From: Candidatus Magasanikiibacteriota bacterium
GTDB lineage: Bacteria > Patescibacteriota > Patescibacteriia > Magasanikbacterales > UBA922
Reading direction: 5' to 3'
Length of the DNA: 64,000 nucleotides
Assembly (NCBI GenBank): GCA_021648085.1
Contig: JAKITS010000001.1
Span: forward strand, 452,948-516,947
Below the pieces are notes generated by a model. The model ran no database searches. It saw nothing but the letters and a program-made list of their open reading frames with translations, and had not been told where the DNA came from. Made by a program: the position numbers and the translations under genes. Each line of letters begins with the position of its first letter. The first letter of the stretch is position 1. Positions 196-63,710 of the stretch are shown here, piece by piece.

Positions 196-2286
196 ATGAA
201 GTATATCAATAATTTAAAGTATATCACTTTTTCACTACTAATTTCAACAGTTGTGTTGTTTTCACTTTGGAAAATAACAAATCCCTATTTAAGCACAGTT
301 ATTTTTTTAATATTTTTAATATTTTTTGGTTATAAATTTGGAAAATTTTTTGTGTTGAAATGCAAACTGTGGCAAACTTTTTTCGGTATAATTTCTGTTT
401 TATTATTACTAATCTCTATTCTCACCATTATTTATTGGTTCTACGAAATAAATATAAACACAGTTTCATTTTCAATTTTATCTATTACCTTAATTTCATT
501 TTTTTTAAATTCTAAAAAAAGTAAATGTCATTTACTAAAAAAATTATCCGAAGTTTCATTTCAAGAAAAGATTAGTTTATTTTCTAAAACACTATTCACA
601 TCATTTGTTATCTTATCTTTTGTACTTTTTTATACACTTCTTACAAAAAATTATGGTGACACACTAAGCTCTCCGTGGACTATTATTGGTCCAAAATTTT
701 TTATAGTTTTCACACTTACCTCTTTTTTACTACTTTTACTTTTGCAAACTGCAAAAAATAAAATTATAAAAATATTTTCAACTACAATTTATTTTGCACT
801 ATTTTTAAGTGTAGCTATAATTATTTTTAAATACGGTTTTGGTTTTGACCCGTTTATTCACCAAGCTGCAGAAAAATTTATCAAAGAAAATGGTGCAATT
901 TATCCAAAACAACCATACTATCTTGGGCAATACTCCTTAGTTTTACTTATTCATTTTCTCACAAATTTCTCTATAGAAATTATAGACAAAGCCTTAGTTC
1001 CAATTTCTTCTGCAATTTTAATTCCACTTTCTACTTATTTTACTTTCAAAAAATTAGAATTTAAAAAATTTACTATCATCTCTATTGCTCTAATTCCACT
1101 TTTTCCACTTTCATTTTTTATACAAACCACACCAAACAGCTTGAGCTTATTACTTTTTTATGTTGTAATTCTCTGGATTTGGAAAGAATTCAAAGAAACT
1201 AATTGGCGTTCAAATTTATTTGGAATTTTAACCAGTCTTACAATCTGCCTAATTCACCCACTTATTGGAATTCCAACTCTAATTATTTATATATTCTCAC
1301 TTTTGGATAAAAATAATAAAATATTTTCAAAAATGTACGGAGTACTTCTTGTGCTCGCTATTCCAACCACACTTATTGCAAGCAGTTTACTTTCTTCAGG
1401 AAAACCAAATATACATTTTAATCCAACCAACTTTTTAGAATTATTCAAACAACCATTTTGGTATATTTTTGAAAACGCACCTATTATTTGGCGACTCTTA
1501 TATTTTGCAAAATCTTTACTAATTCCAACTATTATTTTAATTGCTATTTATGGTTTTTTTATAACAACTCAAAAATACAAATTTACAAAAGCAAACTTTT
1601 TTGCAAAAACAATTGTATATTTATTTATTTCTGCTTTTATAACAAGTTCTGTTTTATTTTTTACAGATGTAATCTCGTACGAACAGGCAAATTATGCAAA
1701 AAGAATTTTAACAATGGTATCTCTAATTTTAATTCCTTTTATTGCAATTTCATTTCGTGAATTTTTTATTAAATTTTCCACAACTATTTTCAAAAAAGTA
1801 ATTATTTCTATTTTAGGATCTATTTTTCTACTTGGCTCATTTTATTTTACATATCCAACTCGCGACAAAGTTTCATTTTATACAGGTTTTACCGTTCGCG
1901 ATGCAGACATAGAAGTTGTAAATTTTATAGAAAACAGAAACAAAGACCAAGACTATATAGTAATCACAAATCAAATAATTTCTGCTGCAGCTATCCATGA
2001 GTTTGGATTTAAAAAATATTACAATACTGTAGAAGGAGAACAGTTTTTTTACTCAATACCTACCGGCGGACCAATGTACAAATTCTTTGGCAAAATGGTT
2101 TACGAGGATGCCAAAAAAGAATGGATGATAGAAGCTATGGATTTTATGGGAGTAGACAAGGCATACTTTGTACACACCAGCTACTGGGCTCCAGCTGGAG
2201 AAATTCGTGACAAAGCAAAACTAGAAGCCGACGCTTGGTGGGAGTTTGGACCAATGCAACTCTGGGTTTATGAGTACACAAGATAA
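196..2286 (+). CDS. polytopic integral membrane protein (>=12 hydrophobic helices) with ~190-aa C-terminal soluble domain; possibly a GT-C-type membrane glycosyltransferase
   Basis: 696-aa ORF. The N-terminal ~500 aa are almost entirely hydrophobic helices; the C-terminal ~190 aa are hydrophilic (…TRDKVSFYTGFTVRDADIEVVNFIENRNKDQDYIVITNQ…). Function inferred only from architecture. Confidence 0.5.
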   Translation: MKYINNLKYITFSLLISTVVLFSLWKITNPYLSTVIFLIFLIFFGYKFGKFFVLKCKLWQTFFGIISVLLLLISILTIIYWFYEININTVSFSILSITLISFFLNSKKSKCHLLKKLSEVSFQEKISLFSKTLFTSFVILSFVLFYTLLTKNYGDTLSSPWTIIGPKFFIVFTLTSFLLLLLLQTAKNKIIKIFSTTIYFALFLSVAIIIFKYGFGFDPFIHQAAEKFIKENGAIYPKQPYYLGQYSLVLLIHFLTNFSIEIIDKALVPISSAILIPLSTYFTFKKLEFKKFTIISIALIPLFPLSFFIQTTPNSLSLLLFYVVILWIWKEFKETNWRSNLFGILTSLTICLIHPLIGIPTLIIYIFSLLDKNNKIFSKMYGVLLVLAIPTTLIASSLLSSGKPNIHFNPTNFLELFKQPFWYIFENAPIIWRLLYFAKSLLIPTIILIAIYGFFITTQKYKFTKANFFAKTIVYLFISAFITSSVLFFTDVISYEQANYAKRILTMVSLILIPFIAISFREFFIKFSTTIFKKVIISILGSIFLLGSFYFTYPTRDKVSFYTGFTVRDADIEVVNFIENRNKDQDYIVITNQIISAAAIHEFGFKKYYNTVEGEQFFYSIPTGGPMYKFFGKMVYEDAKKEWMIEAMDFMGVDKAYFVHTSYWAPAGEIRDKAKLEADAWWEFGPMQLWVYEYTR

Positions 2287-6831: not shown

Positions 6832-6860
6832 ACAAAAACCCGCATTTCGCGGGTTTTTTT
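6832..6860. terminator. bidirectional Rho-independent terminator (A-run/hairpin/T-run)
   Basis: aaaaa-cccgc-atttc-gcggg-ttttttt lies immediately 3' of both recR (+) and the giant surface protein gene (-). It is also part of duplicated segment copy 1. Confidence 0.65.
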
Positions 6861-6866
6861 ATGTTT

Positions 6867-9800
6867 TTATTTTAACTCTTTTCCTATTTCGTATTCTTCA
6901 TCATTTTTTATCGTCACTATTCTATCCCACCTAAAATTCAATCTACTAAAGGCTTCCTCGTTTTTAATATGTCTTTTTACTTGTTTTGTCTGGTCTGTTA
7001 GGTCTGGCTCTAGCCTAAATACTTCTGGGTTATTTTCATATTTAACAAGTGTGTAGTTTGGATGGCGATTTGTATAATCTATTATCTCACCAATTGTGTA
7101 TTTATTGAGAAGTCTTGGGTCAATATCTTCTATCCAATTCCAACTATAGTTTAGCTTATTAAATACTTCTTCAGAGTCTATCCAATATTTTTGATTACCA
7201 AGAAGTAGGTACACCATTGGATCTGTTGTTATTTTTACGAGAGCACCATATTTTGGATCATATTTTGGACCCCAAGGCATAAAACCTAAAGTGTCATCTT
7301 CTACTGTTTCTAGTCTTTTCTCTTCTACTATCTCCACATTATTCCAAGAGTCAAAGTATGTGTAGAAAACATCTGCCCTACTAAAAGCTCTTTTTTTACA
7401 GTCTGGTGTAACAAGATATACGGCAGAAGAGTTTGGTGTTTTATATACTCCACCTTCTTTTAGACTGCAGTCTGAACCTTGTTTTTCTGTTTGAGTATCA
7501 GTCTCAGTTTCTGTATTTAACTCATTTAACAGAATTGTGTCAAAATATGTTGATGCTGTTCCACCGCTTGAAAGAAATTTAGAATAAACAGTTTTTTCTC
7601 CATTTCCAGAAGGCAGTTTCCAGTTTAATTTTGAGGTAAATGGTGTAAATACTGAACCAGCAAAATCTTTTGAATTTGAAACTGCCATTCTATCTGCATC
7701 TAATATGTTAAAAGTTATAGTTACATCTCTTGACTCTGTTGTATAAGCTCCATAATTTATTACAACTGGATTAGAAATTTCTGATTCATCTGTTAAATTT
7801 ATTAGATTAATTTTCACAGAATCATAATTTAAAAACTCTGCATACTCTATTTCCAAATCTAAAACTCCATCTTTGTTTGTGTCTACTTTTTGACTCACAC
7901 CCTTTATTAGGTTCAATATAATTGGGTCTGACTCAATTGTTACCGTAATACTCTCTTTTGCTATTCTAGAGACAAACACACTATGAAAAGAAGCTCCAAC
8001 TTCTGCAGATTTTTCTTCTTGCAGGAAAAACTCTGTAAATAATAATCCTGACGATACACTTTCCGTAGCTGGAGTTTTGGATGGAGTTGGTGGTGGTGCA
8101 AAGAATCCACCGCCGGTAGACGCAACATCGTCATCTGTAATAGTTGCGGTTACACTTGCGATAGTTAAGCTGTCAAAGTTAGAGTCTGAGCTTGCAGATG
8201 TGTTTGAGATTATAGTTGTAGTCTCGCCATCAACCTCGCTATCATCTGTAGCTGTGACTGTCACAGTTTGTTCTGTATCCCAATTTGCATTTGTAAAGGT
8301 GAGGTCAGAGGAAGAAAGACTAACTTCTGAGTTTGATAGTGCGGCTGACACAGTTACATCGTCCGTAGGTTGTGCGTCTAAAACCGCAGTGTATGTGTCA
8401 GTTGTTGACCCTTCTGTCACAGAAACAGACGAAAGAGAGATTGTAACTCCTGCTGTATCATTGTTTGTAATTGTATATGTGTAAGTTGTAGTAGAACCTA
8501 GCGAACCTCCAACAGGGTTTGATATTGTTATTATTAGAGTTTCATCATTTTCAACCAAGTCATCATCTACTACAACCAAACTCAAAGAAGTTGTTGTGTT
8601 TCCATTTGTAATTGAAGCCGTTCCGCTAGAAAGTGTGTAATCTGTTCCACTTCCTGTTGCTGTTCCTCCTGTTATTGCATAATCTACTGAGACATCACTT
8701 ACTACACTTTGATCTGAAGAAATTAAGACAGAGACTGCTGTTGTTCCCTCATCTCCAGAAGCTGTGGTTGCAGAAAAATTAATCTCATAATCAAACTGCC
8801 AACGAGTATTATTTCCAGAATCACTACAACCGGTTGTACATACTATTTGTGTACTACTTAAGTTATTATTATCTTTTACATCTAGATATTGTGCGCTCGT
8901 TGTACTTTTTGGATCAAACTTTGTCTGTGTTCCAGAGCTACTACTTCTTAGGCTCAAAAGATTTCCAGATGTTCCTGCCAAAGTTAGAGTTCCATTTACT
9001 GTTGTGGTCGTACTAGCTGGAAGTGTAAAAGTGTTTGCAGATGAGTCTGTTTTAGTTAGGTTATAAAAAGTATTTGCACCAGAAATTGTCTGGCTTGCGC
9101 CAACAAAGTCTACCGTACTTGAGTTTGGTGTAAGTGTACCTCCTGTGTTTAGGAAGTCTCCTGTTATATTTAATGTTCCAGTTGCTGAATATATTCCAGA
9201 TGCCAAAGTTATATCATTATTTATATTTGTTGTTGCAACACTCGGAGCCAAACTATCTCCAGAATCTGTAAAATTTATAGAAATATCATAAAAATCCACA
9301 ATAGAAGTAGAATAAGCATCTGAACTTGCATCACCATTTCCAACATATTCTACTGTTCCTGAATCTGTGTCATTTGTAAGTGTTACAGTCTCACCTCCTT
9401 GAATACGAAGTGTTCCATCGTTGCTAAATGTACTTGAAACAGTTAAATTATTTCCATTTAATGCGACTGTTCCAGAGCTAATTGTCATTGTGCTTGTAGC
9501 TACCGTACTCGTATTGAATGTATATGTTCCACCTCCTGTGAAAGAAACATCATAAAAAGTTGAAAAACTTGGAAGAGTGTATGAACTAGCTCCATAAAAT
9601 ATAGCTGAACTTCCAGAGCTAAAACTAGGATAAGTTGCGTTTGTTGTAACAGTCTCACCACCTTGCATTTTTAAAATTCCACCATCTTGTACCACTACTG
9701 TTCCAGAAGATCCATTTACTATTAAAGTATTTCCGTTTAGGTCTAAGGTTCCTTCTATTATGTTTAAATCTGTATTCGCATAATCCATTGTTAAACCAGA

Positions 9801-12248
9801 ATTTAATGTGACAGTTCCTGATGATTTATTTATGTTTATATCTGAATTTATTTTATCTTCCACTCCTGTTAAATCTATTGTCTGATCTTGGGTTCCCGTT
9901 AGGTTGAATGTGGCCACATCTAAATTGTCAAATGTGCTGGCCATTGAAAAGTTTGTTCCAGTAAATTCTAATATATTACCAGGCATCCTACCATCAATAA
10001 GATTTAAAGTAGAAGAAACTACTAATGTATCTCCTGAAGCAATAGTGACTGTTTGACCACTATCTCCTTCTATTGTTAAGTTTGTAAAAGTAAAAGTTGT
10101 TGGTACATCTATAGTTGCTGATGTTGAATGAGTATAATATAATGTAGTTCCATTTTCATAAACAGTAGCACCAGCTCCAATAGTAAGATTGTAAACAAGA
10201 CTTGTTGTTCCGGTTGGGAATGTAAAAGTTCCGCCTGTAATAAAAAGACCCTCGTAAATATATGTGATTGAAAGATCACCTGTTCCACCATCGAAAGTAC
10301 CTCCAGAAACTATTAAAGCCCTATAACTTTCCATTAATGCACTTTGCATATTGAAAGTTCCACCAGAGATATTTATAGCATAGGAGTTAAAATCCAAATA
10401 GTTTGAATTTTGAGCATCAAAAGTTCCTCCTGTCATTGTAAAAGCACCGTTAAACACAATGTCAGTAGAACTTGCGTTTATTGTTCCAGCTTCTAAATTT
10501 AAAGTACTTTCAAAAGTAGTAGAAGCTACACCAGAAAATTCTATTGTTGTATTCGTTGCGTTTAGTGTAAATTTAGGCATATCGACATCTGCTGGAATTA
10601 TTATATTCCTTGTGTCTGTTCCTGTTATTTTGAGAAGTCCTGTTCCACCATCAAATGTAGTGGCCATAGAAAATCCACTTCCAGGACCTATAAATTCAAA
10701 AGTACCTGAACCATCCAAAGCACCATCAACTAAATTTAAAGTAGAAGAAACTACTAATGTATCTCCTGAAGCCATGCTCACTGTTTGATTAGTACTTCCA
10801 TCAATTATAAAGTTTGTAAAAGTAAAAGTTGTTGGTACATCTATAGTTGCTGATATTGAATGAGTATAATATAATGTAGTTCCATTTTCATAAACAGTAG
10901 CAGTTGCACCAATTGTTAAATTTCTTTTTAAAGTTGTTGTTCCTGTTGGGAATGTAAAAGTTCCTCCTGAAATTGTAAGATTTGCATATGTATATTGAAT
11001 TGTAAGATTTCCTGTTCCACCATCGAAAGTTCCTCCAGAAACTGTTAAAGTGTTATAACTTTCCATTAATGCACTTTGTAAACTAAAAATACCACCTGAT
11101 ATAGTGGTAGAGCCATTAATATCCAAATAATTTGAGTTTTGTGCATCAAAAGTTCCTCCTGTCATTATAATAGATTTAAAGCTTATATCCGTAGAGCTTG
11201 CATTTATAGTACCAGCATCCAAATATAAATAACCTTCAAAAGTTGTAGACGCTACTCCAGAAAATTCTATTGTTGTGTTTACTGCGTCCAATCTAAGTAA
11301 AGGAAGCTTAACATTTGCATCAAGTATAATATTTCTTGTTTCTACTCCTGATATCTTAAGCTGTCCAGATGATGCAGAAGATCCGCCATCAAATGTTGTA
11401 GCCAAAGAAAAACCACTCCCAGGACCTGTAAATTCTAAAACTCCAGTGCCATCTAGCTCTCCGTCTATAAGCGTAAGAGTGGAAGAGACTATTACAGTGT
11501 CACCAGTATAAATAGCTAACCGCTGACCGCTTCCACCAGCAATTGTAAGGTTTGTAAAAGTAAAAGTTGTTGGAACATTTAAAACAGCACTAGTTATAAA
11601 AGTCATTATCAAATTTGTGCCATTTTCATATACAGTAGCACCAGCTCCAATAGTTAAATCGTCTGTAATAGTTGTTGTTCCGGTTGGGAATGTAAAAGTT
11701 CCACCTGAAATTGTAAGATCTGCATAACTATACTGGAATATCATAGTTCCTGTTCCACCATCGAAAGTACCTCCTGAGAAAACGAAATTATTATATGGTT
11801 CGAATACTGAAGATTGCATATTAAATGTACCTCCTGAAATTGTAGTAGATCCATTAATATCAATAATCGTATCCCCTGCATTAAATGTGCCATCAGCCTG
11901 TGTAAAATTTCCAGTAGTAAGCGTAACACCTGTTGCAACAGTAATAGTCCCAGAATAACCAGCATCTATTTGAAAAGTTGTGACAGTAGAATCAACATCA
12001 ATAGTTGCATTGTCCACATCTCCACCATCAAAAATAGCTATGTCTCCAGAAATAGGATGAGTAGTATCATTTGCCCCACCGGTTGTGGTGGACCAATTTG
12101 TGTCAGCAGAAAAATTTCCTCCAGAAGTTCCTATCCAATATTTGGTGGCTGCTTGTGACGCCGTAGGAATTAGTGAAAAAAATAAAAATAAAAAAATAAA
12201 AAAGAATAATTTTCTATACAAAAAATTATTTTTAGGTTTAGCTATCAT
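6867..12248 (-). CDS. giant secreted repeat protein (1793 aa): signal peptide, 4x ~190-aa beta-helix-like GGTF repeats, Calx-beta-like domains, Pro-rich linker, ~400-aa C-terminal domain; putative adhesin/surface protein
   Basis: N-terminal signal peptide MIAKPKNNFLYRKLFFFIFLFLFFSLIPTASQA. Repeated blocks ISGGTF(N/D)…GGTG…LTISGGTFTFPTGTT…LTIGAGATVYENGT. Calx-beta-like segment …LVVVDDDLVENDETLIITISNPVGGSLG. Linker GGGFFAPPPTPSKTP. Confidence 0.85.
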   Translation of the reverse strand: MIAKPKNNFLYRKLFFFIFLFLFFSLIPTASQAATKYWIGTSGGNFSADTNWSTTTGGANDTTHPISGDIAIFDGGDVDNATIDVDSTVTTFQIDAGYSGTITVATGVTLTTGNFTQADGTFNAGDTIIDINGSTTISGGTFNMQSSVFEPYNNFVFSGGTFDGGTGTMIFQYSYADLTISGGTFTFPTGTTTITDDLTIGAGATVYENGTNLIMTFITSAVLNVPTTFTFTNLTIAGGSGQRLAIYTGDTVIVSSTLTLIDGELDGTGVLEFTGPGSGFSLATTFDGGSSASSGQLKISGVETRNIILDANVKLPLLRLDAVNTTIEFSGVASTTFEGYLYLDAGTINASSTDISFKSIIMTGGTFDAQNSNYLDINGSTTISGGIFSLQSALMESYNTLTVSGGTFDGGTGNLTIQYTYANLTISGGTFTFPTGTTTLKRNLTIGATATVYENGTTLYYTHSISATIDVPTTFTFTNFIIDGSTNQTVSMASGDTLVVSSTLNLVDGALDGSGTFEFIGPGSGFSMATTFDGGTGLLKITGTDTRNIIIPADVDMPKFTLNATNTTIEFSGVASTTFESTLNLEAGTINASSTDIVFNGAFTMTGGTFDAQNSNYLDFNSYAINISGGTFNMQSALMESYRALIVSGGTFDGGTGDLSITYIYEGLFITGGTFTFPTGTTSLVYNLTIGAGATVYENGTTLYYTHSTSATIDVPTTFTFTNLTIEGDSGQTVTIASGDTLVVSSTLNLIDGRMPGNILEFTGTNFSMASTFDNLDVATFNLTGTQDQTIDLTGVEDKINSDININKSSGTVTLNSGLTMDYANTDLNIIEGTLDLNGNTLIVNGSSGTVVVQDGGILKMQGGETVTTNATYPSFSSGSSAIFYGASSYTLPSFSTFYDVSFTGGGTYTFNTSTVATSTMTISSGTVALNGNNLTVSSTFSNDGTLRIQGGETVTLTNDTDSGTVEYVGNGDASSDAYSTSIVDFYDISINFTDSGDSLAPSVATTNINNDITLASGIYSATGTLNITGDFLNTGGTLTPNSSTVDFVGASQTISGANTFYNLTKTDSSANTFTLPASTTTTVNGTLTLAGTSGNLLSLRSSSSGTQTKFDPKSTTSAQYLDVKDNNNLSSTQIVCTTGCSDSGNNTRWQFDYEINFSATTASGDEGTTAVSVLISSDQSVVSDVSVDYAITGGTATGSGTDYTLSSGTASITNGNTTTSLSLVVVDDDLVENDETLIITISNPVGGSLGSTTTYTYTITNNDTAGVTISLSSVSVTEGSTTDTYTAVLDAQPTDDVTVSAALSNSEVSLSSSDLTFTNANWDTEQTVTVTATDDSEVDGETTTIISNTSASSDSNFDSLTIASVTATITDDDVASTGGGFFAPPPTPSKTPATESVSSGLLFTEFFLQEEKSAEVGASFHSVFVSRIAKESITVTIESDPIILNLIKGVSQKVDTNKDGVLDLEIEYAEFLNYDSVKINLINLTDESEISNPVVINYGAYTTESRDVTITFNILDADRMAVSNSKDFAGSVFTPFTSKLNWKLPSGNGEKTVYSKFLSSGGTASTYFDTILLNELNTETETDTQTEKQGSDCSLKEGGVYKTPNSSAVYLVTPDCKKRAFSRADVFYTYFDSWNNVEIVEEKRLETVEDDTLGFMPWGPKYDPKYGALVKITTDPMVYLLLGNQKYWIDSEEVFNKLNYSWNWIEDIDPRLLNKYTIGEIIDYTNRHPNYTLVKYENNPEVFRLEPDLTDQTKQVKRHIKNEEAFSRLNFRWDRIVTIKNDEEYEIGKELK

Positions 12249-12337
12249 ATATAAAAATCTCTATTAATCTTTTAATTATATCTTTTAATTACAATAATAT
12301 CAAATTGGGAATTGTGAATAAAAAATTATTAAAAATA

Positions 12338-12364
12338 AAAAAAGACGCTCAGCGTCTTTTTTTT
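12338..12364. terminator. Rho-independent terminator of rplU (hairpin gacgc-tca-gcgtc flanked by A- and T-runs)
   Basis: aaaaaaagacgctcagcgtctttttttt, 12 nt 3' of the rplU stop. This is the last element inside duplication copy 1. Confidence 0.6.
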
Positions 12365-12377
12365 AACTGAAATATTT

Positions 12378-18443: not shown

Positions 18444-19211
18444 ATGAACAGAGAGGAGAGTGTCTATTCTTGGGAAAATGATTATAATATTTCTTCACAA
18501 AATTTAATAGCACAAAATAAAAGTGGTAAAATTATATCTTTATTAGTAGTGTGCAATAACGAATATGGTAAATATTTTTTAATTAGATTTGTACAACCAA
18601 ATATAGACAAAGAAGTATGGAAAAAAATACAAACAGGTATGCAAAAATATTGTGTAGAGAGTAATGAGGAAATTTCTTTTATTTTTAGTACTTACGAAAA
18701 TGGTAAACAAAAATCTTTGGAGTTGGCAAACAAAATTCTACAAAGTGCTGGTTTTGTTTTAGAAGAAAAATTAAAAGTTCAAAAAGAGTTTAAAACACTT
18801 TATAATACATGTTCAAATATAAGTCCTGAAACATTTGAAAATTTTTTAAAAAAAATTTATTTTTGGAAAATACTTACACCAACAATATATACGGCTTGCC
18901 AAAAAAATGGGGCTCAACTATTGTTTATATGTCAAAACAATAGCGGATACTGGCGAGTATCCCTAAATATAAAATATTTAGAGATACTTTTGCAAAAAAA
19001 TTATACAGAATTATTAGAACTAATTTCAAACTTATTTGAAAATTCTCCGATATCAACCCTATTTCCAGTTTTTCAAATACAAATGAATTATTTATACAAG
19101 GAGTGGAATATCGGCCCTTTTGAAGATCCTGAAAAAGGCTTAAAACAAATTCAAAATGTTTTTGACAAAGTTCTACATAAACTAGGTTTTATTCTTTATC
19201 CTCATAAATAA
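18444..19211 (+). CDS. hypothetical protein (255 aa)
   Basis: ORF with RBS agagggg upstream. No recognisable motifs. Confidence 0.5.
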   Translation: MNREESVYSWENDYNISSQNLIAQNKSGKIISLLVVCNNEYGKYFLIRFVQPNIDKEVWKKIQTGMQKYCVESNEEISFIFSTYENGKQKSLELANKILQSAGFVLEEKLKVQKEFKTLYNTCSNISPETFENFLKKIYFWKILTPTIYTACQKNGAQLLFICQNNSGYWRVSLNIKYLEILLQKNYTELLELISNLFENSPISTLFPVFQIQMNYLYKEWNIGPFEDPEKGLKQIQNVFDKVLHKLGFILYPHK

Positions 19212-20984: not shown

Positions 20985-21223
20985 CAATCCTAATTTGAGT
21001 GATATAACCTATTGGTTAGTATTTTTTCAAACTAGTGAAAGAGCAAACGCTCAAATTAGGATTGGGGGCTATCACCAAATATTATTTTGTTGGCTAAATC
21101 TTCAAATTTTGAGCGGGACGAAAAGAAAAAATCTTTGCCCTGCCATAGCATCGGAAATATTTTTTCTTAAAGTCGCAGTCAAAATTTGAAGATTTAGGTA
21201 GAAATAGTGTTTGGTGATAGCCC
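20985..21223. other. two adjacent long imperfect palindromes (hairpin 1: 20985-21064 with 16/17-bp stem; hairpin 2: 21066-21223, ~70-bp imperfect arms incl. perfect 13-bp ggctatcaccaaa/tttggtgatagcc) - candidate structured RNA / regulatory element in mraZ leader
   Basis: Seen directly. caatcctaatttgagtg…cgctcaaattaggattg; ggctatcaccaaat…ggctaaatcttcaaattttgagcgg… mirrored by …cgcagtcaaaatttgaagatttaggtag…atttggtgatagcc. The two track ORFs here (20995-21189 + and 21102-21299 -) give mirror-image peptides, as expected for a palindrome. Confidence 0.6.
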
Positions 21224-27219: not shown

Positions 27220-27424
27220 ATCATATTGAGCGGAGTGAAACGGAGTTGAAAACCCAATGCACGTCATATTGAGTGGAGTGAAACGGAGTCGAAATATCTC
27301 GATTTAATTTCATTAGAACTTTGAATATTTTATGTTTTGGTGATGATACTGTCCCGAGATCCTTCGGCTTCGCTCAGGATGACGTGTGGGATTTTTGTCA
27401 TCCCCAACTTGATTGGGGATCCCC
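27220..27424. repeat. cluster of MITE-like repeats: partial copy 27220-27262, full ~130-bp element 27260-27390 (cacgtcatattgagYggagtgaaacggagtcgaaatatctcg … cgagatccttcggcttcgctcaggatgacgtgtg), solo gtcatccccaacttgattggggatcc 27399-27424
   Basis: Same termini (cacgtcat..tgagcg / cgctcaggatgacgtg) as the elements at 21351-21557 and 29740-29873. Confidence 0.6.
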
Positions 27425-29638: not shown

Positions 29639-29939
29639 CACGTCATATTGAGCTTGACTGGGGATCCAGGGTTTATATCACAGTTCTATTTTGTATACTC
29701 TGGATTCCCAGTCAAGCTGAGAATGACAGAAAACTTTTTCATGTCATATTGAGCGGAGTGAAACGGAGTCGAAATATCTTGGGACTATATCATTAGAACT
29801 TTGAATATTCAGTCTTCTAATGTTTTTGTTTCGAGATTCTTCGGCTGTCGCTCAGGATGGCGTGATAGAAAGGTGATATTGTCTCGAGATCCATTCTACT
29901 TCATTCCACTTTGCCTCATTCCGCTCAGGATGACATGTG
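29639..29939. repeat. cluster of three MITE-like repeats: 29639-29729 (~91 bp, TIR cacgtcatattgagcttgactggggatcc / ggattcccagtcaagctgagaatgacag), 29740-29873 (~134 bp, near-identical to 27260-27390 element), partial 29883-29939
   Basis: Direct sequence comparison. These fill the whole uvrB-rnj intergenic region. Confidence 0.6.
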
Positions 29940-41261: not shown

Positions 41262-41930
41262 ATGGAAAAATTACAAATTCTTATTGCACTTAGCGCAAAA
41301 GATAAAAAAAGTGATCCACTAAATCAATCATTAATTTTTACCGAGGATTTTAAAATTTTTGCTATTTTTAGCCAAGAACAATTCCAAAAACTAACATATT
41401 TGTACGAAATTAGTTTTGATAACACAGAAACACAAAACCTCTTACCTACTCATTCTGAAAAAGAGGTAATTGAGATAAATTGTGATCCAAACACAAACCC
41501 AGCACTATATTTAATGTTTATGGATTTGAGTGATCTGTACACAATAAGAGTAAAGATGGAAAAAGATTTAGGAAAAATATTAGGAATAGAAGCAAAAAAA
41601 ACTTATTTATTCAATACATTGTTCCCCTTAAAAACAGATTTTGACAAAGATGTTTCTGAAAATCCTATTCAAGATACTGAAATTCCAAAAGAAGTAAAGT
41701 TTGAAGAAACTCCATTTTGTAAATCTTGTGATAATTTAGAACCTTTTACACCAACAATAACACTAAATGTTGGAGAATTTTGCCTAAAATGTTGTGACTT
41801 CCCTATTGGAAATAGTATTGCAAAACAAAGAATAAAACTTGCAATAACAAAAAGAAGGGTTCAACTTCAAATGGATTATTACTATCTAAAAGCAGAAGGA
41901 TTAGAAATAGAACTTTCAGACCTTCCATAA
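41262..41930 (+). CDS. hypothetical protein with C-terminal Cys4 cluster (possible zinc ribbon)
   Basis: CKSCDN…(N17)…CLKCCDF near the C-terminus. Confidence 0.45.
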   Translation: MEKLQILIALSAKDKKSDPLNQSLIFTEDFKIFAIFSQEQFQKLTYLYEISFDNTETQNLLPTHSEKEVIEINCDPNTNPALYLMFMDLSDLYTIRVKMEKDLGKILGIEAKKTYLFNTLFPLKTDFDKDVSENPIQDTEIPKEVKFEETPFCKSCDNLEPFTPTITLNVGEFCLKCCDFPIGNSIAKQRIKLAITKRRVQLQMDYYYLKAEGLEIELSDLP

Positions 41931-46815: not shown

Positions 46816-49800
46816 AAAAAACCCGCATTTCGCGGGTTTTTTATGTTTTTATTTTAACTCTTTTCCTATTTCGTATTCTTCATCATTTTTTATCGTCACT
46901 ATTCTATCCCACCTAAAATTCAATCTACTAAAGGCTTCCTCGTTTTTAATATGTCTTTTTACTTGTTTTGTCTGGTCTGTTAGGTCTGGCTCTAGCCTAA
47001 ATACTTCTGGGTTATTTTCATATTTAACAAGTGTGTAGTTTGGATGGCGATTTGTATAATCTATTATCTCACCAATTGTGTATTTATTGAGAAGTCTTGG
47101 GTCAATATCTTCTATCCAATTCCAACTATAGTTTAGTTTATTAAATACTTCTTCAGAGTCTATCCAATATTTTTGATTACCAAGAAGTAGGTACACCATT
47201 GGATCTGTTGTAATTTTTACAAGAGCACCATATTTTGGATCATATTTTGGACCCCAAGGCATAAAACCTAAAGTGTCATCTTCTACTGTTTCTAGTCTTT
47301 TCTCTTCTACTATCTCCACATTATTCCAAGAGTCAAAGTATGTGTAGAAAACATCTGCCCTACTAAAAGCTCTTTTTTTACAGTCTGGTGTAACAAGATA
47401 TACGGCAGAAGAGTTTGGTGTTTTATATACTCCACCTTCTTTTAGACTGCAGTCTGAACCTTGTTTTTCTGTTTGAGTATCAGTCTCAGTTTCTGTATTT
47501 AACTCATTTAACAGAATTGTGTCAAAATATGTTGATGCTGTTCCACCGCTTGAAAGAAATTTAGAATAAACAGTTTTTTCTCCATTTCCAGAAGGCAGTT
47601 TCCAGTTTAATTTTGAGGTAAATGGTGTAAATACTGAACCAGCAAAATCTTTTGAATTTGAAACTGCCATTCTATCTGCATCTAATATGTTAAAAGTTAT
47701 AGTTACATCTCTTGACTCTGTTGTATAAGCTCCATAATTTATTACAACTGGATTAGAAATTTCTGATTCATCTGTTAAATTTATTAGATTAATTTTCACA
47801 GAATCATAATTTAAAAACTCTGCATACTCTATTTCCAAATCTAAAACTCCATCTTTGTTTGTGTCTACTTTTTGACTCACACCCTTTATTAGGTTCAATA
47901 TAATTGGGTCTGACTCAATTGTTACCGTAATACTCTCTTTTGCTATTCTAGAGACAAACACACTATGAAAAGAAGCTCCAACTTCTGCAGATTTTTCTTC
48001 TTGCAGGAAAAACTCTGTAAATAATAATCCTGACGATACACTTTCCGTAGCTGGAGTTTTGGATGGAGTTGGTGGTGGTGCAAAGAATCCACCGCCGGTA
48101 GACGCAACATCGTCATCTGTAATAGTTGCGGTTACACTTGCGATAGTTAAGCTGTCAAAGTTAGAGTCTGAGCTTGCAGATGTGTTTGAGATTATAGTTG
48201 TAGTCTCGCCATCAACCTCGCTATCATCTGTAGCTGTGACTGTCACAGTTTGTTCTGTATCCCAATTTGCATTTGTAAAGGTGAGGTCAGAGGAAGAAAG
48301 ACTAACTTCTGAGTTTGATAGTGCGGCTGACACAGTTACATCGTCCGTAGGTTGTGCGTCTAAAACCGCAGTGTATGTGTCAGTTGTTGACCCTTCTGTC
48401 ACAGAAACAGACGAAAGAGAGATTGTAACTCCTGCTGTATCATTGTTTGTAATTGTATATGTGTAAGTTGTAGTAGAACCTAGCGAACCTCCAACAGGGT
48501 TTGATATTGTTATTATTAGAGTTTCATCATTTTCAACCAAGTCATCATCTACTACAACCAAACTCAAAGAAGTTGTTGTGTTTCCATTTGTAATTGAAGC
48601 CGTTCCGCTAGAAAGTGTGTAATCTGTTCCACTTCCTGTTGCTGTTCCTCCTGTTATTGCATAATCTACTGAGACATCACTTACTACACTTTGATCTGAA
48701 GAAATTAAGACAGAGACTGCTGTTGTTCCCTCATCTCCAGAAGCTGTGGTTGCAGAAAAATTAATCTCATAATCAAACTGCCAACGAGTATTATTTCCAG
48801 AATCACTACAACCGGTTGTACATACTATTTGTGTACTACTTAAGTTATTATTATCTTTTACATCTAGATATTGTGCGCTCGTTGTACTTTTTGGATCAAA
48901 CTTTGTCTGTGTTCCAGAGCTACTACTTCTTAGGCTCAAAAGATTTCCAGATGTTCCTGCCAAAGTTAGAGTTCCATTTACTGTTGTGGTCGTACTAGCT
49001 GGAAGTGTAAAAGTGTTTGCAGATGAGTCTGTTTTAGTTAGGTTATAAAAAGTATTTGCACCAGAAATTGTCTGGCTTGCGCCAACAAAGTCTACCGTAC
49101 TTGAGTTTGGTGTAAGTGTACCTCCTGTGTTTAGGAAGTCTCCTGTTATATTTAATGTTCCAGTTGCTGAATATATTCCAGATGCCAAAGTTATATCATT
49201 ATTTATATTTGTTGTTGCAACACTCGGAGCCAAACTATCTCCAGAATCTGTAAAATTTATAGAAATATCATAAAAATCCACAATAGAAGTAGAATAAGCA
49301 TCTGAACTTGCATCACCATTTCCAACATATTCTACTGTTCCTGAATCTGTGTCATTTGTAAGTGTTACAGTCTCACCTCCTTGAATACGAAGTGTTCCAT
49401 CGTTGCTAAATGTACTTGAAACAGTTAAATTATTTCCATTTAATGCGACTGTTCCAGAGCTAATTGTCATTGTGCTTGTAGCTACCGTACTCGTATTGAA
49501 TGTATATGTTCCACCTCCTGTGAAAGAAACATCATAAAAAGTTGAAAAACTTGGAAGAGTGTATGAACTAGCTCCATAAAATATAGCTGAACTTCCAGAG
49601 CTAAAACTAGGATAAGTTGCGTTTGTTGTAACAGTCTCACCACCTTGCATTTTTAAAATTCCACCATCTTGTACCACTACTGTTCCAGAAGATCCATTTA
49701 CTATTAAAGTATTTCCGTTTAGGTCTAAGGTTCCTTCTATTATGTTTAAATCTGTATTCGCATAATCCATTGTTAAACCAGAATTTAATGTGACAGTTCC

Positions 49801-52357
49801 TGATGATTTATTTATGTTTATATCTGAATTTATTTTATCTTCCACTCCTGTTAAATCTATTGTCTGATCTTGGGTTCCCGTTAGGTTGAATGTGGCCACA
49901 TCTAAATTGTCAAATGTGCTGGCCATTGAAAAGTTTGTTCCAGTAAATTCTAATATATTACCAGGCATCCTACCATCAATAAGATTTAAAGTAGAAGAAA
50001 CTACTAATGTATCTCCTGAAGCAATAGTGACTGTTTGACCACTATCTCCTTCTATTGTTAAGTTTGTAAAAGTAAAAGTTGTTGGTACATCTATAGTTGC
50101 TGATGTTGAATGAGTATAATATAATGTAGTTCCATTTTCATAAACAGTAGCACCAGCTCCAATAGTAAGATTGTAAACAAGACTTGTTGTTCCGGTTGGG
50201 AATGTAAAAGTTCCGCCTGTAATAAAAAGACCCTCGTAAATATATGTGATTGAAAGATCACCTGTTCCACCATCGAAAGTACCTCCAGAAACTATTAAAG
50301 CCCTATAACTTTCCATTAATGCACTTTGCATATTGAAAGTTCCACCAGAGATATTTATAGCATAGGAGTTAAAATCCAAATAGTTTGAATTTTGAGCATC
50401 AAAAGTTCCTCCTGTCATTGTAAAAGCACCGTTAAACACAATGTCAGTAGAACTTGCGTTTATTGTTCCAGCTTCTAAATTTAAAGTACTTTCAAAAGTA
50501 GTAGAAGCTACACCAGAAAATTCTATTGTTGTATTCGTTGCGTTTAGTGTAAATTTAGGCATATCGACATCTGCTGGAATTATTATATTCCTTGTGTCTG
50601 TTCCTGTTATTTTGAGAAGTCCTGTTCCACCATCAAATGTAGTGGCCATAGAAAATCCACTTCCAGGACCTATAAATTCAAAAGTACCTGAACCATCCAA
50701 AGCACCATCAACTAAATTTAAAGTAGAAGAAACTACTAATGTATCTCCTGAAGCCATGCTCACTGTTTGATTAGTACTTCCATCAATTATAAAGTTTGTA
50801 AAAGTAAAAGTTGTTGGTACATCTATAGTTGCTGATATTGAATGAGTATAATATAATGTAGTTCCATTTTCATAAACAGTAGCAGTTGCACCAATTGTTA
50901 AATTTCTTTTTAAAGTTGTTGTTCCTGTTGGGAATGTAAAAGTTCCTCCTGAAATTGTAAGATTTGCATATGTATATTGAATTGTAAGATTTCCTGTTCC
51001 ACCATCGAAAGTTCCTCCAGAAACTGTTAAAGTGTTATAACTTTCCATTAATGCACTTTGTAAACTAAAAATACCACCTGATATAGTGGTAGAGCCATTA
51101 ATATCCAAATAATTTGAGTTTTGTGCATCAAAAGTTCCTCCTGTCATTATAATAGATTTAAAGCTTATATCCGTAGAGCTTGCATTTATAGTACCAGCAT
51201 CCAAATATAAATAACCTTCAAAAGTTGTAGACGCTACTCCAGAAAATTCTATTGTTGTGTTTACTGCGTCCAATCTAAGTAAAGGAAGCTTAACATTTGC
51301 ATCAAGTATAATATTTCTTGTTTCTACTCCTGATATCTTAAGCTGTCCAGATGATGCAGAAGATCCGCCATCAAATGTTGTAGCCAAAGAAAAACCACTC
51401 CCAGGACCTGTAAATTCTAAAACTCCAGTGCCATCTAGCTCTCCGTCTATAAGCGTAAGAGTGGAAGAGACTATTACAGTGTCACCAGTATAAATAGCTA
51501 ACCGCTGACCGCTTCCACCAGCAATTGTAAGGTTTGTAAAAGTAAAAGTTGTTGGAACATTTAAAACAGCACTAGTTATAAAAGTCATTATCAAATTTGT
51601 GCCATTTTCATATACAGTAGCACCAGCTCCAATAGTTAAATCGTCTGTAATAGTTGTTGTTCCGGTTGGGAATGTAAAAGTTCCACCTGAAATTGTAAGA
51701 TCTGCATAACTATACTGGAATATCATAGTTCCTGTTCCACCATCGAAAGTACCTCCTGAGAAAACGAAATTATTATATGGTTCGAATACTGAAGATTGCA
51801 TATTAAATGTACCTCCTGAAATTGTAGTAGATCCATTAATATCAATAATCGTATCCCCTGCATTAAATGTGCCATCAGCTTGTGTAAAATTTCCAGTAGT
51901 AAGCGTAACACCTGTTGCAACAGTAATAGTCCCAGAATAACCAGCATCTATTTGAAAAGTTGTAACAGTAGAATCAACATCAATAGTTGCATTGTCCACA
52001 TCTCCACCATCAAAAATAGCTGTGTCTCCAGAAACAGGATGAGTAGTATCATTTGCCCCACCGGTTGTGGTGGACCAATTTGTGTCAGCAGAAAAATTTC
52101 CTCCAGAAGTTCCTATCCAATATTTGGTGGCTGCTTGTGACGCCGTAGGAATTAGTGAAAAAAATAAAAATAAAAAAATAAAAAAGAATAATTTTCTATA
52201 CAAAAAATTATTTTTAGGTTTAGCTATCATATATAAAAATAAATAAAAATCTCTATTAATCTTTTAATTATATCTTTTAATTACAATAATATCAAATTGG
52301 GAATTGTGAATAAAAAATTATTAAAAACAAAAAAAGACGCTCAGCGTCTTTTTTTTA
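46816..52357. repeat. segmental duplication copy 2 (~5.54 kb) of 6834-12364
   Basis: Same as copy 1. Includes a second copy of the rplU-type terminator hairpin (52336-52357) although no rplU is nearby. Confidence 0.9.
46849..52230 (-). CDS. giant secreted repeat protein, paralog 2 (1793 aa; 2 aa substitutions vs copy 1)
   Basis: Identical architecture to 6867-12248. The differences I could find are I66V and I70T plus synonymous changes. Confidence 0.85.
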   Translation of the reverse strand: MIAKPKNNFLYRKLFFFIFLFLFFSLIPTASQAATKYWIGTSGGNFSADTNWSTTTGGANDTTHPVSGDTAIFDGGDVDNATIDVDSTVTTFQIDAGYSGTITVATGVTLTTGNFTQADGTFNAGDTIIDINGSTTISGGTFNMQSSVFEPYNNFVFSGGTFDGGTGTMIFQYSYADLTISGGTFTFPTGTTTITDDLTIGAGATVYENGTNLIMTFITSAVLNVPTTFTFTNLTIAGGSGQRLAIYTGDTVIVSSTLTLIDGELDGTGVLEFTGPGSGFSLATTFDGGSSASSGQLKISGVETRNIILDANVKLPLLRLDAVNTTIEFSGVASTTFEGYLYLDAGTINASSTDISFKSIIMTGGTFDAQNSNYLDINGSTTISGGIFSLQSALMESYNTLTVSGGTFDGGTGNLTIQYTYANLTISGGTFTFPTGTTTLKRNLTIGATATVYENGTTLYYTHSISATIDVPTTFTFTNFIIDGSTNQTVSMASGDTLVVSSTLNLVDGALDGSGTFEFIGPGSGFSMATTFDGGTGLLKITGTDTRNIIIPADVDMPKFTLNATNTTIEFSGVASTTFESTLNLEAGTINASSTDIVFNGAFTMTGGTFDAQNSNYLDFNSYAINISGGTFNMQSALMESYRALIVSGGTFDGGTGDLSITYIYEGLFITGGTFTFPTGTTSLVYNLTIGAGATVYENGTTLYYTHSTSATIDVPTTFTFTNLTIEGDSGQTVTIASGDTLVVSSTLNLIDGRMPGNILEFTGTNFSMASTFDNLDVATFNLTGTQDQTIDLTGVEDKINSDININKSSGTVTLNSGLTMDYANTDLNIIEGTLDLNGNTLIVNGSSGTVVVQDGGILKMQGGETVTTNATYPSFSSGSSAIFYGASSYTLPSFSTFYDVSFTGGGTYTFNTSTVATSTMTISSGTVALNGNNLTVSSTFSNDGTLRIQGGETVTLTNDTDSGTVEYVGNGDASSDAYSTSIVDFYDISINFTDSGDSLAPSVATTNINNDITLASGIYSATGTLNITGDFLNTGGTLTPNSSTVDFVGASQTISGANTFYNLTKTDSSANTFTLPASTTTTVNGTLTLAGTSGNLLSLRSSSSGTQTKFDPKSTTSAQYLDVKDNNNLSSTQIVCTTGCSDSGNNTRWQFDYEINFSATTASGDEGTTAVSVLISSDQSVVSDVSVDYAITGGTATGSGTDYTLSSGTASITNGNTTTSLSLVVVDDDLVENDETLIITISNPVGGSLGSTTTYTYTITNNDTAGVTISLSSVSVTEGSTTDTYTAVLDAQPTDDVTVSAALSNSEVSLSSSDLTFTNANWDTEQTVTVTATDDSEVDGETTTIISNTSASSDSNFDSLTIASVTATITDDDVASTGGGFFAPPPTPSKTPATESVSSGLLFTEFFLQEEKSAEVGASFHSVFVSRIAKESITVTIESDPIILNLIKGVSQKVDTNKDGVLDLEIEYAEFLNYDSVKINLINLTDESEISNPVVINYGAYTTESRDVTITFNILDADRMAVSNSKDFAGSVFTPFTSKLNWKLPSGNGEKTVYSKFLSSGGTASTYFDTILLNELNTETETDTQTEKQGSDCSLKEGGVYKTPNSSAVYLVTPDCKKRAFSRADVFYTYFDSWNNVEIVEEKRLETVEDDTLGFMPWGPKYDPKYGALVKITTDPMVYLLLGNQKYWIDSEEVFNKLNYSWNWIEDIDPRLLNKYTIGEIIDYTNRHPNYTLVKYENNPEVFRLEPDLTDQTKQVKRHIKNEEAFSRLNFRWDRIVTIKNDEEYEIGKELK

Positions 52358-58213: not shown

Positions 58214-58729
58214 CTATCTACTCAGCTCTACCTCTGCGCTAAGCTCGTGCTCACAAGCACGAATAGTCACAAGATCTGCAGATGATTTTTCCAGAGTATA
58301 ACCTGTAATAGATGCAGACCAAGCACCGTCTCCATTTGGACTAATAGGGATTGAGCCCAAGTATCCCTGTGTCACCATATCTGAAATATCCACACAGACA
58401 GACTGTGTTGGATCTGTAGTACAAAAACTTGTCACATTTGAAGCTGTAGCCCCAGTCACACAAGTTCCGATAAGATAAACCTGCCCAACAGTTGTGTTTG
58501 TAATTGTAGTAAGGTATGTACCGCCGTTGTCAATTTGATCCACCTTAACAGCCTGAAGAATGTTATTTACATCTGAAAATCTTCTTGCATCTCTTGCATC
58601 TTTAAAACGCTTTGCAGGATTTAGAGCTACAAAAATTAAAAGAGCCAGAATTGCAATAATTGCAATAACTAAAAGTAATTCGATTAAAGTAAAACCTTTT
58701 CTTTTTTCTAAGTACTCTTTAATTTTCAT
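58214..58729 (-). CDS. type IV pilin-like protein (class III signal peptide)
   Basis: MKIKEYLEKRKGFTLIELLLVIAIIAILALLIFVAL is a prepilin cleavage/methylation motif G|FTLIELL. C-terminal Cys pair. Confidence 0.8.
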   Translation of the reverse strand: MKIKEYLEKRKGFTLIELLLVIAIIAILALLIFVALNPAKRFKDARDARRFSDVNNILQAVKVDQIDNGGTYLTTITNTTVGQVYLIGTCVTGATASNVTSFCTTDPTQSVCVDISDMVTQGYLGSIPISPNGDGAWSASITGYTLEKSSADLVTIRACEHELSAEVELSR

Positions 58730-58849
58730 AAAAAAATAACGAAATAATAATACATACATTATACCACAAAATAAAAAATATTTAAATTTATAAGACAAAA
58801 CAAAAAACAAGCCTTATGCTTGTTTTTTGTTTTTGAAGTTTTTTGAAAA

Positions 58850-59365
58850 CTAACGAGTTAAAGTAATCTCTGTTGTGTTCTCATCTTCACAAGCTCTAAT
58901 AGTTACAGACCCATTTGCAGCTTTTGCAATAGTGTATCCTGTGTTTGCAGCTGACCATGTTGCGGTACCATCAGGACTTATAGGAATAGATCCTAAATAA
59001 CCATCTGTCACAAGTCCGGTTAAGTCTGCACAAGCATCTTGAGTTGGTTCTGTTGTACAAAGATAATTTGTTACTGTGGTTGTTGCTCCAGTAGTACAAG
59101 TACCGACCATATAAACCTCGGAAGCTGTCGCACTAGTAATACTAGCTAGGTACGGACCTTTATTATCCACCTGGTCAACCTTAATTGCGGTCAAAATATT
59201 ATTTACATCCGAGAACCTTCTTGAATCACGAGCGTCTGCAAACCTAGTTGCAGGATCTAACGCTACAAAAATTAAAAGAGCCAAAATCGCAATAATTGCG
59301 ATTACCAAAAGCAATTCGATTAAAGTGAAACCTTTTGCTTTTGCCAAAGTTTTTTTCATTTGCAT
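58850..59365 (-). CDS. type IV pilin-like protein, paralog of 58214-58729
   Basis: MQMKKTLAKAKGFTLIELLLVIAIIAILALLIFVAL. Same N-terminal 40 aa as its neighbour but a divergent C-terminal domain. Confidence 0.8.
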   Translation of the reverse strand: MQMKKTLAKAKGFTLIELLLVIAIIAILALLIFVALDPATRFADARDSRRFSDVNNILTAIKVDQVDNKGPYLASITSATASEVYMVGTCTTGATTTVTNYLCTTEPTQDACADLTGLVTDGYLGSIPISPDGTATWSAANTGYTIAKAANGSVTIRACEDENTTEITLTR

Positions 59366-62870: not shown

Positions 62871-63710
62871 TTAAATTTTTTCATAATTGGAAAAATAATT
62901 TAATAAATTATTTTCTTCATCTTCTTTAATTAATTTTATACAAATTAAATTTTTAACGGCTCTTGAACAGGCAACATAAAACAATTTCTGATTTTTAAGT
63001 TTTTTCTCTAATTCTTCATCGCTAAAAATAATTTGAAAATCATATTGATTCCAAAAAAATTCGTCTAAGACAATCATTACATTTTCAATTTCTCCACCTT
63101 TTGTTTTATGCATGGTTATATATTCAGATTTGATATTTTCATCTATATATTCTTGATAATTAATAATTTCTTTAAAAGACACCTTTTTATTTTTAAATAA
63201 ATCAAAATAAAATAGTTCCTTGTTATATTTTCGCAAAAATTCATTAAATAATTCTTTATCAACTTTCATTTGTTTTGCTGTTGTGTTACCGCTTTTATAA
63301 GAAGTTTTACGATCATGATAATCTTTATCTATACTTAATTCTCTTAAAAATTCATCTTTATTCTCAATGTAATAATTATAAGAACTAGTTTTTTTTACAA
63401 ACTTATTTTCAAAAGCTTTTCCAACTGCTTTTATACAATCTATTTCACCTATAATCAATTCATTAAAAAAATTGGACACTGTTTCTTGATCTTCGATTTT
63501 TATTAACTTGAATCCTGACTTATTTATTGTTGTTAATACTTTATTATAATTTCTATTTTTAAAATCAATACATAATTTAGCTAAGTCATTAATGCCTAGT
63601 CTATCAAAATCTTTTTTTATAAGTTCATTAATTTCCCAGGTTCTTAAGCTATACAAATTATATAAATTACTAAAACCTAATTCATTCGCAATAGATTTAT
63701 TAGTAAGCAT
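62871..63710 (-). CDS. protein with UvrD/PcrA-helicase C-terminal-like domain (motifs V-VI) and novel N-terminal region (279 aa)
   Basis: TMHKTKGGEIENVMIVLDEF (motif V-like TxHKSKGLEFxxVxL) and LFYVACSRAVKNLICI (motif VI-like LLYVAxTRAKxxL). No Walker A/B in the N-terminal 200 aa. Confidence 0.5.
   Translation of the reverse strand: MLTNKSIANELGFSNLYNLYSLRTWEINELIKKDFDRLGINDLAKLCIDFKNRNYNKVLTTINKSGFKLIKIEDQETVSNFFNELIIGEIDCIKAVGKAFENKFVKKTSSYNYYIENKDEFLRELSIDKDYHDRKTSYKSGNTTAKQMKVDKELFNEFLRKYNKELFYFDLFKNKKVSFKEIINYQEYIDENIKSEYITMHKTKGGEIENVMIVLDEFFWNQYDFQIIFSDEELEKKLKNQKLFYVACSRAVKNLICIKLIKEDEENNLLNYFSNYEKI

Follow-up and report, generated by a model that had tools for sequence, protein, structure and literature searches.

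We analysed a 64-kb stretch of contig JAKITS010000001.1 (hereafter the window), from a metagenome-assembled genome (MAG) of Candidatus Magasanikbacteria, which belongs to the candidate phyla radiation (CPR; Patescibacteria), and focused on a gene coding for a large, putatively secreted protein. The open reading frame (ORF) delineated at 6867..12248 in an initial annotation of this DNA stands: it lies on the minus strand, starts with ATG and codes for 1793 residues, identical to NCBI MCF6276700.1 (L3J07_02505), a 'hypothetical protein' of the MAG. The product contains four Cys residues (C1137, C1141, C1594 and C1617) and is encoded in AT-rich DNA, the window having about 32% G+C. We favour, with moderate confidence, the view that it is a Sec-exported surface fibre, adhesin or coat, retained non-covalently in the wall of a monoderm CPR bacterium.

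The gene is present in two copies in the window, as the initial annotation had recognized. The coding sequence (CDS) of copy 2, at 46849..52230 on the minus strand (MCF6276666.1, L3J07_02335), also specifies 1793 residues and differs from that of copy 1 by 7 nt and two residues (I66V and I70T). The duplicated DNA unit, 5.5 kb in length, extends beyond the CDS, with 6834..12365 being 99.66% identical to 46817-52357 in direct orientation, 40 kb apart. Bounded by a hairpin on either side, it takes in the promoter, the CDS and the terminator. On the 5' side of the gene, a terminator-like hairpin followed by a T-run (12337..12363, minus strand) comes after rplU, and copy 2 has the same element upstream. 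At the other end, a GC hairpin between A- and T-runs (6834..6858), resembling a bidirectional terminator, separates the stop codon of the gene from recR. Within the unit, a sigma-70-like promoter was recognized by consensus match only (12275..12303, minus strand; TTGATA-17-TATAAT, 11/12 positions), ~27 nt 5' of the ATG. Since the ends of the unit coincide with hairpin-plus-T-run elements and the promoter lies inside it, an entire transcription unit was copied. Each copy would represent a self-contained transcription unit, with hairpin, near-consensus promoter, CDS and terminator, and the duplication probably raises expression.

Copies that are 99.66% identical over 5.5 kb in a MAG could in principle reflect an assembly artefact, with a single gene in reality. 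Nevertheless, the flanks of the two copies are unrelated and sensible in each case, copy 1 being located between recR and rplU, and copy 2 between the hrcA-grpE-hsp20-dnaK operon and SPFH/yidC genes. The repeat boundaries are sharp and fall at the hairpins, the copies differ by seven CDS substitutions and by indels in the untranslated flanks, including a 10-bp indel in the 5' untranslated region, and both are annotated on the same public 984-kb contig. We consider an artefact extremely improbable and rejected it in view of the distinct flanks and the sequence differences. All seven CDS differences, two of which are non-synonymous, fall in nt 196-351 and 5010-5094, and the central 4.66 kb are identical. 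Because this clustering at the ends has a probability of P ~8e-7 if differences were spread evenly, it suggests that gene conversion, possibly ongoing, keeps the two copies alike through recombination. A tblastn search detected no further copies of the terminal module or of the repeat cassette described below in the window beyond these two genes.

The first 33 residues (12150..12248, minus strand) resemble a Sec-type signal peptide, with Lys and Arg residues in the n-region, a core of Phe and Leu residues and a putative SQA/A cleavage site (MIAKPKNNFLYRKLFFFIFLFLFFSLIPTASQA/ATKYW), as judged by sequence inspection and hydropathy. They form the sole hydrophobic segment of the protein in a hydropathy scan, in line with the clear signal peptide described initially. 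No LPxTG motif was found by regular-expression search and no C-terminal hydrophobic or transmembrane segment by the hydropathy scan, and searches of Pfam and NCBIfam with the whole protein and its sub-segments revealed neither a β-barrel translocator nor PATR repeats, even at E<=10. The LPxTG motif, the C-terminal transmembrane segment and the barrel had already been reported as missing. Pfam searches gave no hit in the protein for SLH (PF00395), Por_Secre_tail (PF18962) or the two-partner secretion (TPS) domain (PF05860), and no gene for a TpsB partner was found among the neighbours, which are housekeeping genes. On these grounds we rejected assignments to the autotransporters of type Va secretion (no C-terminal barrel or PATR repeats), to the TpsA/FHA proteins of two-partner secretion (no PF05860, housekeeping neighbours), to sortase-anchored LPXTG proteins (no motif or hydrophobic segment), to SLH-anchored proteins (no PF00395) and to cargo secreted by the type IX system (T9SS; no PF18962). 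Membership of the RTX adhesins was likewise rejected, their features being absent.

The mature protein begins with a long, Thr/Gly/Ser/Asn-rich repeat cassette. As whole-protein BLASTP self-comparison was unusable (contained high-scoring segment pairs are culled), we used segment-versus-whole BLAST comparisons. These revealed highly significant internal repeats at shifts of 242-246 and 488-490 residues (E 1e-35 to 1e-45), with a period of 732 nt at 77% identity in the DNA. The internal repeats reported initially are therefore real, but their number and borders had to be revised. Instead of four units of ~190 residues with 70-80% identity, unit alignment shows ~2.7 copies of a 244-245-residue unit, with whole-unit identities of 65.6% (U1/U2), 57% (U2/U3) and 47% (U1/U3), and of 62-74% over the conserved first 170 columns. 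The count of four units probably arose from counting GGTF motifs, of which there are ten, spaced by 20-23 residues. By segment-versus-whole BLASTP and unit alignment, U1 corresponds to residues 120-364 (11157..11891), U2 to residues 365-608 (10425..11156) and the truncated U3 to residues 609-775 (9924..10424), all on the minus strand, as are the following domains. Beyond residue ~775, U3 diverges into non-repeated sequence of like composition, a degenerate Thr/Gly/Ser/Asn-rich continuation (residues 776-999, 9252..9923) with an internal repeat at a shift of 96 residues (811-868 versus 907-956).

Conserved caps close the cassette on both sides. The N-cap (ATKYWIGTSGGNFSADTNWS...; residues 34-119, 11892..12149) matches most homologues at their N-termini, and in multi-cassette proteins it recurs after each end-cap; homologue matches to it cover residues ~34-170, overlapping the start of U1. 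The C-cap (residues 1000-1152, 8793..9251) has the pattern ...LLSLRSS..GTQ...YLDVKDNNN...CTTGCSDSGNNTRWQF and holds C1137 and C1141. Self-alignment of a unit profile that includes homologues gave a match at a shift of 41 columns (probability 97.9%, E 6e-13), which suggests that the 244-residue unit is itself made of shorter coils. Based on the composition, rich in Thr (18.6%), Gly (12.2%) and Ser (10.9%), this coil-length sub-repeat and the existence of relatives with TPS or PATR domains, the most natural reading is that the cassette probably folds as a β-solenoid or β-helix. The β-helix-like repeats proposed in the initial annotation are plausible in view of these features and of the GGTF spacing; no Pfam or PDB profile match was found for them.

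Many right-handed β-helices are glycan lyases or hydrolases, which raises the question of whether the repeat region might be a surface-displayed, polysaccharide-degrading enzyme of the pectate-lyase or tailspike type. Phage spike families were hit below threshold with some sequences of the C-cap alignment, but no lyase or hydrolase family was matched significantly, and catalytic helices seldom contain a unit duplicated in the form of a repeat. We thus regard an enzymatic cassette as very unlikely.

We collected 224 relatives of the cassette at E<=1e-3, mostly of 1500-3000 residues and most without annotation, from Patescibacteria, Omnitrophota, Planctomycetota and other lineages. A common plan recurs among them, in which the mature protein opens with the N-cap (residues ~34-170) and continues with units that vary in number, followed by a strongly conserved C-cap (residues ~1000-1152) with the end pattern ...YLDVKDNNN...C..GC.DSGNNTNW.F. 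No Pfam model covers this C-cap (...LRSS..G.QW.I.P.G...V.YLDVKDSNN...SGNNTNW.F). In giant proteins of Planctomycetota and Omnitrophota (P0015, P0031, P0036 and P0041), the whole N-cap-to-C-cap cassette occurs two to three times in tandem, and it behaves as one folding unit because it recurs as a whole within single proteins. The cassette thus represents a widespread module outside Pfam, common to giant proteins of Patescibacteria, Omnitrophota and Planctomycetota. Some homologues carry TPS (PF05860) or PATR (PF12951) domains. P0023, P0049 and P0084 carry SLH within ~20-65 residues of their C-terminal end and P0047 carries it ~210 residues away, and the T9SS C-terminal domain (PF18962) closes P0074. 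Searches of the literature for β-helical surface proteins of CPR bacteria returned nothing specific; a preprint on the giant genes of Omnitrophota discusses adhesion roles of giant proteins and does not cover the present family.

The relatives bring to mind another function for the protein, as the main S-layer or coat protein, forming a structural lattice rather than serving as an adhesin. SLH-bearing homologous cassettes are present in Peregrinibacteria and other lineages, one of them being named 'S-layer-like protein' by its source, and the two near-identical copies with their near-consensus promoters and strong terminators suggest high expression. However, nothing in the protein indicates self-assembly, and the architecture of the family is highly variable in cassette number, tails and size (1000-3000 residues), which is more adhesin-like. 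We consider a lattice protein unlikely; were it one, the terminal module would still be its wall anchor.

The cassette is followed by a region of immunoglobulin-like (Ig-like) domains and linkers. The initial annotation had described Calx-β-like modules in this region, and one such domain is clear. Residues 1156-1262 (8463..8783) match Calx-β (PF03160) with 45.9-52.2 bits, for a gathering cut-off of 27 (E 7e-12 to 7e-14), and phmmer aligns them with the CBD1 and CBD2 structures of NCX1. The acidic Ca2+-coordinating segment (DDDxxExDE) is present as DDDLVENDE, VVVDDDLVENDE aligning with IIDDDIFEEDK/E of NCX1 CBD1, and this domain probably binds Ca2+. The second Ig-like domain (residues 1265-1378, 8115..8456) resembles degenerate Calx-β and LapA domains and remains below threshold (LapA, E 3.6e-4). 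It is followed by a Gly/Pro/Thr-rich linker (residues 1379-1401, 8046..8114), which includes the proline-rich hinge noted earlier (GGGFFAPPPTPSKTP, residues 1379-1393).

The C-terminal 400 residues, initially taken for a single domain with two Cys pairs, turned out to be composite. An AlphaFold2 model of the last 402 residues, based on a 110-sequence alignment (predicted local distance difference test, pLDDT, 88.8), shows two Ig-like β-sandwiches, a linker and a compact module of 200 residues. The sandwiches (residues 1402-1577, 7518..8045) extend over about residues 1402-1485 and 1495-1577, match SiiE, BT4673, SoxY and PKD domains in Foldseek searches and are followed by a Thr/Glu-rich linker. 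The C-terminal part contains one Cys pair only, C1594/C1617, the other two Cys residues of the protein being those of the C-cap. Searches of Pfam and NCBIfam with the whole protein and six sub-segments (E<=10) yielded nothing significant except Calx-β. PDB sequence and profile searches with the whole protein, the C-terminal part and the C-cap and unit alignments retrieved the NCX Calx-β domains, and otherwise nothing or noise.

As the Foldseek search with the 402-residue model was swamped by generic Ig-like matches, we predicted the terminal module alone (residues 1592-1793, 6870..7475). The model has a pLDDT of 94.8 and a predicted template modelling score of 0.85, and the module is, according to this prediction, a well-folded independent domain. 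It comprises a divergent first unit, which holds the near-invariant C1594/C1617 pair, and two ~60-residue β-β-β-α repeats (residues 1668-1724 and 1732-1793; profile self-alignment, probability 97%, E 1e-11). No match was found in Pfam, NCBIfam or the PDB sequences, and a search of the literature for a description of the module returned nothing specific. We therefore treat it as an undescribed family.

Across the module, the 139 proteins collected by a word-indexed search are 50-64% identical. This range of identity holds across more than 110 proteins, with the near-invariant Cys pair and many conserved Trp, Tyr and Phe residues. An exhaustive profile search of 1.84 billion cluster representatives returned matches in proteins of 228-4666 residues: 389 at E<=1e-30, rising to 1339 at E<=1e-10 and to 3612 at E<=1e-3. 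The weaker tiers may in part reflect alignment to other profile columns. In species-representative genomes, 487 module loci were confirmed. The best 80 of these are almost all from Candidatus Magasanikbacteria, with others from Uhrbacteria, Falkowbacteria, Paceibacter and unnamed Patescibacteria, and up to three loci per genome occur even among these 80. A Magasanikbacteria-type module with 55-64% identity is also present in many GTDB MAG records that bear the title 'uncultured Gammaproteobacteria bacterium' (L002, L005, L007, L008, L018, L025, L027, L036 and others, one of them the 1.23-Mb 'chromosome' OZ246405.1). These titles are probably attached to mislabelled Patescibacteria.

The position of the module was surveyed in 226 proteins in which it is near-complete. 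It ends at most 15 residues from the C-terminus in 139 of them, directly follows the N-terminal signal region in 54, precedes a tail of 16-110 residues in 32 and is internal in a single one. Since it is found at N-termini as well, we rejected a role as a C-terminal sorting signal. By a crude heuristic, 175 of the 214 module proteins that start with Met have a signal-peptide-like N-terminus. The passengers are mutually unrelated and include CAP, GHL15, BNR propellers with Big_13, fn3, CarboxypepD_reg and the present cassette. PG_binding_1 comes after the module, at the extreme C-terminus, in each of four proteins checked (P0139, P0241, P0242 and P0259). Moreover, the module takes in Magasanikbacteria the position that SLH or T9SS domains occupy in cassette homologues elsewhere.

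Based on its terminal position, its unrelated passengers, its positional equivalence to SLH and T9SS domains and the lack of any other retention signal in the protein, we consider it an even chance or slightly better that the module is a non-covalent wall-retention domain, which would make it a candidate answer to how the protein is held at the surface. The traits to be expected of a wall-retention family are found together: the module is predicted to fold independently, lies at a terminus, has many paralogues in a genome and is joined to diverse passengers, in proteins that appear to be secreted. Direct binding to peptidoglycan or to a wall polymer is putative. The organism probably makes peptidoglycan, as the window encodes proteins of the pathway (MurJ, UppP and an MraY-like GT4). 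We propose more tentatively that the last 200 residues constitute a CPR-restricted wall-retention module of EccB-like repeats, serving Magasanikbacteria and their neighbours as a general display device that would replace SLH, LPXTG and T9SS tags.

The likeness to EccB emerged from the Foldseek search of the PDB with the module alone, in which the top 11 hits are all extracytoplasmic domains of EccB proteins (ESX-1, ESX-3 and ESX-5; E 3e-4 to 3e-2, probability up to 0.98), the next hits having E>0.2. EccB1 contains four ~55-residue repeats, each with a four-stranded sheet and two helices, and a weak resemblance of its first repeat to PlyCB, a phage protein that binds the wall, led to the suggestion of peptidoglycan binding (PMC4769845). 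In a comparison with predicted structures of viral proteins, the module matches uncharacterized actinophage proteins best (E 4e-6 and 6e-4), and there are weaker matches to single repeats within phage CHAP, lysozyme and amidase proteins; these viral matches are hints only.

A number of observations weigh against the proposed wall-tethered fibre. The template modelling (TM) scores between the module and EccB are ~0.24, with a root mean square deviation of ~20 A; the likeness is local and therefore lies in the repeat fold, not in the arrangement of the repeats. Peptidoglycan binding by EccB was never demonstrated (PMC4769845), and PlyCB was not retrieved among the Foldseek hits of the module. 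Only two of the three module units are related at the sequence-profile level. The co-occurrence with PG_binding_1 could instead mean a role of the module other than wall binding, and its invariant Lys, Glu and His residues would fit a catalytic or metal site too. For the rest of the protein, the signal peptide and its cleavage site were judged by eye, residues 34-1152 match no Pfam, NCBIfam or PDB profile, unit and C-cap alignments included, and residue-lag autocorrelation shows a weak ~20-residue periodicity (z ~3 at lag 20).

Some of these features would also suit a module that is the working end of the protein, a lectin binding host cells or glycans or a wall-acting enzyme, the protein then being released or held in another manner. 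The invariant residues and the many conserved aromatics are compatible with such a function, PG_binding_1 usually targets enzymes to the wall, and the weak single-repeat matches are to phage lysin-type proteins. Nevertheless, the passengers are themselves enzymes or binding domains (CAP, GHL15 and BNR propellers), the module is at a terminus in all but 1 of 226 proteins, the present protein has no other retention signal, and no fold match of the module to any enzyme was found. A working end thus appears rather improbable, even a little more so than the S-layer function discussed above.

In the wall-tethered fibre that we favour, the signal peptide would be cleaved following export, and the terminal module would bind the cell's own wall, through peptidoglycan or a wall-associated polymer, thereby tethering the protein. 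The four Ig-like domains, at least one of them a probable Ca2+-binding Calx-β domain, and the Pro/Thr-rich linkers would form a stalk. The ~1100-residue cassette, with its N-cap, 2.7 units of 244 residues, degenerate coils and C-cap, would point outward as a probable β-solenoid rod contacting host cells, surfaces or glycans. All our findings are compatible with the secreted cell-surface or host-interaction protein put forward in the initial annotation; a putative export signal and two copies were found, and an adhesive role would be its presumed function.

CPR bacteria are regarded as living in attachment to other cells, and how their envelopes are built and decorated is largely uncharted. If the module is a wall-retention tag, it provides a sequence handle to list the surface proteins of Magasanikbacteria from genomes alone. 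Fusions of the module to GFP would then be a simple reagent to label cells and find the wall component bound. Were it the general display device proposed above, the entire surface proteome of these uncultured episymbionts would carry it, and it would lead to its wall ligand.

The other genes of the window have mostly housekeeping functions (dnaB, recR, rplU, uvrABC, clpB, murJ, lepA, recJ, the dnaK operon, yidC and uppP). Two tandem paralogous genes at 58214..58810 and 58850..59365, both on the minus strand, code for type-IV-pilin-like proteins with the prepilin N-terminal motif KGFTLIELLLVIAIIAILA, with an 80.6% repeat in the DNA of their 5' parts (58559-58730 versus 59195-59366). They likely specify a further surface or host-contact structure of the same CPR bacterium. 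ORFs of 222-696 residues without Pfam match at E<=1e-5 are found at 196..2286, 18444..19211 and 41262..41930 on the plus strand and at 62871..63710 on the minus strand. An intergenic element of ~125 nt flanks uvrB on both sides (27260-27386 and 29740-29864, 81% identical). Each copy forms one long imperfect hairpin, stabler on the plus strand (-42.6 and -49.0 kcal/mol, z -4.0 and -6.3), whose central stem differs in sequence between the copies with pairing kept. This element has no match in Rfam and could be a repetitive extragenic palindromic (REP) or miniature inverted-repeat transposable element (MITE)-like element, or a small RNA. An imperfect ~160-bp palindrome is located at 21066-21223 (opposite-strand self-match of 77.5%). 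Searches of the window yielded neither tRNA nor tmRNA genes, nor any Rfam family at gathering threshold.

Several known systems resemble the protein in part. Diderm β-helical adhesins (TpsA/FHA, HMW1, EtpA and PATR autotransporters) have a similarly long Thr/Gly/Ser/Asn-rich repeat region, with a ~20-residue sub-periodicity that the cassette seems to share. The present protein, in contrast, is devoid of TPS domain, PATR match and β-barrel, belongs to a CPR bacterium and is presumably exported by Sec alone. In giant Ca2+-dependent adhesins (SiiE and LapA/MpIBP-type RTX proteins), tandem Ig-like and Calx-β-type domains likewise separate the anchor from the distal part, and the BIg domains of SiiE match the present Ig-like domains in Foldseek searches. 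Unlike RTX adhesins, the protein contains no RTX repeats, type I secretion signal or LapA-type retention module, the LapA hit in Pfam being sub-threshold. EccB of the type VII (ESX) secretion systems shares with the module repeats of ~55-60 residues that combine a small β-sheet with helices, and it provides the sole significant PDB fold matches. The module differs from EccB (PF05108) by the lack of a sequence match, of a transmembrane helix and of the EccB central domain and by its global arrangement, and the window contains no type VII secretion genes. We rejected membership of the EccB family, as no Pfam or PDB sequence match was found and the fold likeness is restricted to the repeats; a link between the repeats would bear on the unresolved function of the EccB extracytoplasmic domain in type VII secretion. 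Further parallels are the SLH-anchored surface and S-layer proteins of monoderm bacteria, which combine a signal peptide with a long passenger and, at or near the C-terminal end, a non-covalent wall binder; the CPR homologues P0023, P0047, P0049 and P0084 among them share the N-terminal repeat cassette with the present protein. The latter has no SLH domain, and its module is unrelated to SLH in sequence. The protein as a whole would be a new member of a familiar type, the wall-tethered fibre, and its distinctive part is the terminal module.

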